A stretch of DNA of 64,000 nucleotides, from assembly GCF_003334305.1 (NCBI RefSeq), contig NZ_QOWS01000002.1; one strand, written 5' to 3'. Shown here piece after piece: positions 34,371 through 34,599 of the stretch (its first letter is position 1; each line of letters begins with the position of its first letter). The notes below the pieces were generated by a model. It made no database searches. It was not told where the DNA came from and saw only the letters and a program-made list of their open reading frames with translations. The DNA comes from Escherichia coli. GTDB taxonomy: Bacteria > Pseudomonadota > Gammaproteobacteria > Enterobacterales > Enterobacteriaceae. A program made the position numbers and the translations under genes.

Positions 34371-34412
34371 CGTCCAGATACTGAACATTCTAATTTTTAG
34401 CATGTGATACCT

Positions 34413-34446
34413 AAACCGCAACGCTGATACAGGTTGCGGTTTTTTA
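34413..34446 (+). terminator. intrinsic terminator after paaY
   Basis: ACCGCAAC-gctgatacag-GTTGCGGT-TTTTT. Confidence 0.7.
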
Positions 34447-34599
34447 TTGCCGGATGCGGTACTTGTCGCGTTTTGTTTTGTGTTTTTCAGGACAATAGAG
34501 CAACTCATCCAGTAATCTTGTTTACGCCCTCGCATTATTTATCTCTTTTCGTTTCTATACTGATTTTTCTTAATCCGTTTTATTACAGGGCAGGGTGCG

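Follow-up and report, generated by a model that had tools for sequence, protein, structure and literature searches.

The 229-bp spacer between paaY and pdxI (=ydbC) in this Escherichia coli genome is, with high probability, the scar that one old and illegitimate deletion of ydbA left in an ancestral paaY-ydbA-pdxI arrangement. The spacer retains the very end of the ydbA coding sequence, followed by the terminator that lies downstream of ydbA, from which we conclude that the gene was once present and was lost. A sequence-only reading of this DNA had proposed that the locus either never acquired ydbA or lost it precisely. The loss stands; non-acquisition does not, nor does precision, as the event left an 18-nt stub of ydbA, an 11-nt gap and a 4-nt filler.

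In the window (the whole 64-kb stretch of DNA analyzed here), paaY, the last gene of paaXY, occupies 33780–34370 on the plus strand (196 aa) and ends with a TAA stop codon at 34368–34370. On the same strand, pdxI (34600–35460) encodes a 286-aa aldo-keto reductase annotated as pyridoxine 4-dehydrogenase. Given the paaY end at 34370 and the pdxI start at 34600, the spacer spans 34371–34599, exactly 229 bp with 40% G+C. The length reported in the sequence-only reading therefore agrees with both the open reading frame table and the RefSeq annotation of E. coli A7 (NZ_CP028767.1), which lists the two genes with the names and coordinates found in the window. The A7 genome (orangutan faeces; 4,836,060 bp) is 100% identical to the window over the first 50 kb of the latter. 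PaaY scored 375 bits on NCBIfam TIGR02287 (cut-off 319.6) and PdxI 557 bits on NF007695 (cut-off 280), which places both proteins in these families. An Rfam search of 33700–35500 returned no match at E <= 1, so the spacer contains no known small RNA or riboswitch. Literature searches found nothing on the pdxI/ydbC naming and only incidental mentions of ydbA, apart from a mastitis pan-genome paper (PMC4951805).

To describe what is missing, we compared the window with the corresponding locus of K-12 AB1157. There, paaY and pdxI flank, in this order, a 330-bp spacer containing a 21-aa open reading frame, ydbA fragment 1, IS2, IS30, ydbA fragment 2 and 207 bp; the ydbA fragments and insertion sequences named in the sequence-only reading are thus annotated in this genome. 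Alignment also established that paaY and pdxI are not adjacent in K-12, the interval between the two breakpoints being ~8.9 kb, where the window has about a dozen bases. The left BLAST match ends at window position 34371 (position 3059 of the K-12 locus, L001), the base after the paaY stop codon, and the match resumes at 34384, 10 nt before the K-12 ydbA stop codon. Both loci share the flanking gene order (paaX, paaY ... pdxI, ydbD, ynbABCD; flanks 97.9–98.4% identical), a terminator, a REP-like remnant and the block upstream of pdxI, whereas the window lacks the 330-bp upstream spacer with its paaY hairpin and 21-aa open reading frame, both ydbA fragments, IS2 and IS30. When the rest of the 64-kb window was compared with a 25-kb K-12 locus containing ydbA, no further match to ydbA was obtained. 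With 18 nt left, the window has no functional ydbA reading frame encoding passenger and beta-barrel domains.

At base resolution, the deletion junction (34371–34375, plus strand) consists of a C at 34371, common to the K-12 left flank (TAAC), and the filler GTCC at 34372–34375. Next comes the first part of the ydbA remnant (34376–34386, plus strand), AGATACTGAAC, which corresponds to TGATGCTGAAC in ydbA (K-12 L001 11982–11992) with substitutions at 34376 and 34380. The second part (34387–34393, plus strand), ATTCTAA, comprises part of the last two codons and the stop codon of ydbA. The end of the gene reads ...GGCG-TGATGCTGAAC-TTCAAGAAAAC-GTTCTAA, and it is the 11 nt TTCAAGAAAAC that are absent between the two remnant parts. 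The following segment (34394–34412, plus strand) is the start of the former ydbA 3' untranslated region, which directly follows the stop codon of the gene in every aligned E. coli that has ydbA.

BLAST left 12 nt of the junction (GTCCAGATACTG) unaligned. A search for their source in seven ydbA alleles or orthologues gave only chance-level matches with at least two mismatches; these bases were explained by aligning divergent alleles in which paaY and pdxI are likewise contiguous (hereafter compact alleles). In an alignment of seven compact alleles, the less mutated ones read TAAC-GTCC-TGATGCTGAAC-GTTCTAA, and that of strain TB06052 carries the exact TGATGCTGAAC. Within the 8.9-kb K-12 segment, the only copy of this 11-mer lies 11 nt upstream of GTTCTAA, and the 15-mer of the less mutated alleles was matched as well to the ydbA end by only 2 of 20,000 shuffles. 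The window's own first remnant block is degraded (9/10 positions match, and 280 of 20,000 shuffles do equally well), so the remnant argument leans on the sister alleles. Relative to the intact allele of strain CE2050, 6,792 bp are replaced by GTCC and 11 nt more are lost between AAC repeats, with breakpoints that are ambiguous within ~4–7 nt. The filler is invariant in 7/7 compact alleles aligned. The K-12 left flank (TTTTGTCCCTTT, 17 nt past TAAC) was considered as a possible source of GTCC; a 4-mer match carries no weight in deciding this. For typing the compact allele, the diagnostic junction is TAAC-GTCC-[T/A]GAT[G/A]CTG[A/G]AC-[G/A]TTCTAA.

On the right side of the junction, the whole interval between the ydbA stop codon and the pdxI ATG aligns without a break between the window and five ydbA-bearing strains (K-12, 155, 536, CP52E and CE2050). 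Read leftward from pdxI, this homology passes through the REP remnant, the terminator and the ydbA stop codon into the reading frame. All ydbA alleles aligned end in AAGAAAAC[G/A]TTCTAA; the allele of strain 536 has ACATTCTAA, like the window, and window positions 34384–34393 (AACATTCTAA) are identical to its ydbA end. In Pseudocitrobacter faecalis and a divergent Escherichia (L009), the orthologues end in ...GTGATGCTGAAC.TCAAGAAAACGTTCT[A/G]A and are followed by different DNA containing REP palindromes. This shared ending next to different downstream sequences argues that the retained bases come from ydbA itself rather than from an older spacer.

The gene order in other genomes indicates which arrangement came first. 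In P. faecalis, paaK-paaX-paaY is followed by a 1,982-aa ydbA orthologue, pdxI, azoR and hrpA, the order from paaK to pdxI being that of K-12. In the B2 strain E41-1 (NZ_CP028483.1, L094 2036–2614), ydbA is directly preceded by a fusion of two stubs, 252 bp of feaR and 329 bp of paaY; this strain has no paa operon and an intact-looking ydbA. Together, the Pseudocitrobacter order and the E41-1 stubs argue that the full paaY-ydbA-pdxI arrangement is ancestral, although lateral transfer of the entire block, and not shared ancestry, could also explain the Pseudocitrobacter order. The ydbL-ydbA spacer of strain 536 has ~290 bp in common with the K-12 paaY-ydbA spacer, which, with the E41-1 stubs, points to the paa-less type as a deletion derivative of the full arrangement as well. 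Such paa-less B2/E strains (536, the ST131-like E41-1 and the O157-like 155), with the order ydbL-ydbA-pdxI, are thus the other derivative of the same block: like the ancestral block they keep the 290 bp upstream of ydbA and the downstream terminator, and in contrast to the compact allele they have lost fea-tyn-paa and kept ydbA. The paa-less arrangement corresponds to a deletion scar of ~17 kb.

Could the compact spacer instead be the ancestral state, with ydbA later inserted between paaY and the terminator in K-12-like lineages? In E. albertii and Enterobacter sp. ENT03, ydbL adjoins pdxI without ydbA upstream, so that ydbA and its AT-rich 300-bp upstream region behave as an accessory module at some point in enterobacterial history, and the paa-to-ydbA region has been described as a zone of heterogeneity, with full-length ydbA in ~42% of phylogroup A (PMC4951805). 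However, these ydbA-less outgroups also lack paa, the terminator and the REP segment, and so do not represent a compact paaY-pdxI state. Homology of E. albertii to the window starts at 34548, only ~50 bp before the pdxI ATG (likewise ~50 bp in ENT03), which indicates that 34394–34474 travels with the ydbA module. Among the matches listed in the PdxI outgroup search, there were two Escherichia loci and none from E. fergusonii, E. marmotae or E. ruysiae. An ancestral compact spacer is largely refuted by the ydbA coding sequence that the compact allele holds (11 + 7 nt, including the conserved C-terminal ...TF-stop), which ends as the orthologues of other genera do with different DNA downstream, and it does not fit the Pseudocitrobacter order or the descent of B2 strains from an ancestor with both paa and ydbA. 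We consider it very unlikely.

Equally improbable is that ydbA lies in a mobile island and that the compact junction arose by repeated precise or site-specific excision, for instance via IS2 or IS30. Both elements do lie inside K-12 ydbA, IS1 is found nearby in other strains, and the left breakpoint is no more than ~15 nt away from where comparison with paa-less strains places the right edge of the fea-paa block. Yet a repeat search of the spacer found only the terminator arms and chance-level 10–14-mers, with no insertion sequence ends, att sites, target-site duplication or inverted repeats besides the terminator, and the K-12 flanks of the variable segment showed no duplicated target. Intact ydbA alleles without any insertion sequence exist (CE2050, CP52E and 536), and the idiosyncratic filler and 11-nt gap are common to all sampled alleles, which otherwise differ by up to 7%. 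The search for junction or target-site scars suggested in the sequence-only reading therefore yielded a deletion scar and none of the insertion sequence, att or target-duplication kind; together with the insertion-free intact alleles, this argues for an illegitimate deletion and against precise excision. As ydbA is long and internally repetitive and can trouble assemblers, a collapse during assembly might also be imagined. The chance of such an artefact is negligible, as more than 2,000 independent complete genomes have the identical architecture and the junction has a substitution history of its own.

Deletion of ydbA from the full arrangement thus accounts best for the spacer, and the steps would be as follows. 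One deletion would have taken ~330 bp upstream of ydbA, with the native paaY terminator and the 21-aa open reading frame, and >99% of the ~6.5-kb gene, ~6.8 kb in total relative to an intact allele. From left to right, what remained would be the base next to the paaY stop codon, the 4-nt filler, 18 nt of the ydbA 3' end, the terminator and a decayed REP-like element, with the pdxI upstream region untouched. The deleted gene belongs with the BigA/YdbA giant autotransporter adhesins: YdbA of CE2050 (2,163 aa) matched NF033178 (auto_BigA) with E = 0 and 1,864 bits, which is below the curated cut-off of 3,400 bits and makes it a relative of Salmonella BigA rather than an equivalent. The RefSeq name, "BigA/YdbA N-terminal beta-barrel domain-containing protein", agrees with this placement. 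The window keeps none of this coding capacity.

The terminator (34413–34448, plus strand) is near-invariant in the alignments. Its arms, 34413–34422 and 34433–34442 (AAACCGCAAC / GTTGCGGTTT), are 100% complementary and form a perfect 10-bp stem with a 3-bp inner CUG/CAG extension, followed by the U-tract UUUUUUAUU. The hairpin has a folding energy of -16.6 kcal/mol (z = -3.98), and 0/200 shuffles fold as well. A G+C-rich stem-loop with a U-tract directly behind it, in the orientation of the upstream gene, is the structural hallmark of an intrinsic terminator, and the one clean terminator claimed for this spacer is, as a structure, real. A simple terminator scan overlooked it because of a loop rule of 3–8 nt; the same scan flagged a second, weaker terminator-like site at 34452–34473, within the REP remnant. 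In ydbA-bearing strains, the hairpin is the terminator that follows ydbA; in the window, it lies 43 nt beyond the paaY stop codon and is the first terminator that paaXY transcripts would meet. K-12 has a native hairpin with a U-tract ~30 nt after paaY (-16 kcal/mol), inside the deleted segment. Transcripts of paaXY would now end at the former ydbA terminator, and pdxI would keep its own upstream region, insulated from paaXY read-through. We would expect separate, normal expression of paaXY and pdxI, and a cell without the YdbA surface protein.

Downstream of the terminator lies a degenerate REP-like remnant (34449–34474, plus strand; GCCGGATGCGGTACTTGTCGCGTTTT), at a position homologous to that of full REP palindromes elsewhere. 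Its first part, 34449–34459 (GCCGGATGCGG), matches the head of the REP type GCCGGATGCGnCG...CTTATCCGGCCTAC, and its tail is degraded. Pairs of full REP palindromes (TGCCGGATGCG...TATCCGGCCTAC) occupy the same post-ydbA position in Escherichia L009 and Pseudocitrobacter, where the E. coli-type terminator hairpin is absent.

The remainder of the spacer includes a conserved block upstream of pdxI (34516–34599, plus strand), with a -10-like TATACT at 34556–34561 and a Shine-Dalgarno-like AGGGTG at 34592–34597. This block is near-invariant in all E. coli alleles aligned, and its core, TTTCTATACTG...CTTAATC...ACAGGGCAGGGTG, also occurs in E. albertii, Escherichia L009 and Pseudocitrobacter. The sequence-only reading placed the ydbC promoter in the spacer, a claim that could not be upheld in that form: a consensus scan of 34371–34599 found no sigma-70 site, and by eye no -35 element could be paired with TATACT at 16–18 nt. 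Because the block is conserved across genera, pdxI likely has a non-canonical or activator-dependent promoter, and we presume from sequence conservation that 34516–34599 contains this promoter and the 5' leader.

How common is the compact allele? Contiguous paaY-pdxI was found in 2,035 of the 5,426 complete E. coli genomes, and a 100-bp junction query was spanned in ~2,038 (~38%). The ydbA 3' end adjoins pdxI in 3,078/5,426 genomes, and the K-12-type paaY-ydbA left junction is present in 1,932/5,426. In seven of the ~2,038 compact genomes, the junction was inspected nucleotide by nucleotide; all seven (93–100% identical over 100 bp) have the filler and the 11-nt gap. Two such features would not recur in independent deletions, which argues for one event. 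The compact allele of HB-Coli0 is 100% identical to the window over 1,681 bp, and the junction architecture is identical in the O26 strains RM10386 and 98E11, the W-derived KO11FL, TB06052, TA8571 and others; the A7, HB-Coli0 and O26-type alleles differ by three extra substitutions in the remnant (AGATACTGAACA vs the consensus TGATGCTGAACG). The allele occurs in different flank backgrounds: the PaaY protein of TA8571 is that of K-12, as is the PdxI protein of the O26-type 98E11. These combinations suggest an old polymorphism or recombinational spread. We conclude that the compact spacer is a common and essentially known structural polymorphism, real but ordinary.

The sequence-only reading took the missing ydbA, together with an absent Rac prophage and a deletion in paa, as the mark of a reduced lineage. 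Our results do not support this: the ydbA scar is found in ~38% of complete genomes, including O26-type genomes of 5.7–5.8 Mb, and A7 itself measures 4.84 Mb. The paa deletion, at 25858/25859, removes 3,308 bp relative to HB-Coli0 (the paaZ 5' end, the paaZ-paaA promoter region, paaA-paaD and the start of paaE), and its junction occurs in 1/5,426 complete genomes, that of A7. No obvious microhomology was seen at its breakpoints. RefSeq annotates paaZ of A7 as a partial pseudogene, and the strain presumably cannot catabolize phenylacetate. At the Rac integration region, the ttcA-uspF intergenic segment (7627–7801) holds no prophage, ttcA being followed by uspF and ompN; HB-Coli0, the closest relative at the paaY locus, carries a lambdoid prophage at this site (pinR, tfaR, tail fibre, lom and gpJ). 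At the empty Rac site, a prophage is absent, which is unrelated to the other two losses. The three absences (ydbA, Rac and paaZ-paaE) differ in age and frequency and do not form one genome-reduction signal.

Variation extends to the other side of pdxI. In CE2050 (L007), Escherichia L009 and Pseudocitrobacter (L010), azoR and hrpA directly follow pdxI, which makes ydbD-ynbABCD (window 35461–42631) another presence/absence segment. Strain 536 lacks only ydbD of this segment. In CP52E (L006 14620–23079), ynbA-ynbC are replaced by a resistance island (Tn3-family transposase, IS26, IS1133, aph(3'')-Ib and aph(6)-Id), further evidence of a rearrangement hotspot. Among the matches listed, relatives of PdxI are mostly alpha- and beta-proteobacterial, with Mesorhizobium, Rhizobium, Burkholderia and myxobacteria at 72–79% amino-acid identity; the enterobacterial proteins listed are those of E. 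albertii (93%), Pseudocitrobacter (90%), Kluyvera (86%) and Enterobacter (76–79%). Such identity is unusually high for distant taxa and the distribution, among these matches, is patchy, which may reflect lateral transfer or strong conservation.

Our results settle in which direction this common presence/absence polymorphism arose: by loss of ydbA in the present lineage and not by its insertion into others. The gene has also been inactivated independently and often, by IS2 and IS30 in K-12, by a split in the O157-like strain 155 and by IS1 in others, a pattern that fits selection against ydbA. That the compact allele arose once, then moved between lineages by homologous recombination under selection until it reached ~38% of genomes, is a speculative scenario to which we give a small chance. 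If it were true, selection may favor cells without the giant BigA-like surface adhesin, as a costly or immunogenic protein, or may act on the changed way in which paaXY transcripts end ahead of pdxI, a vitamin-B6 salvage gene. The terminator predicted to serve paaXY in more than 2,000 E. coli genomes is an inheritance from the lost ydbA.
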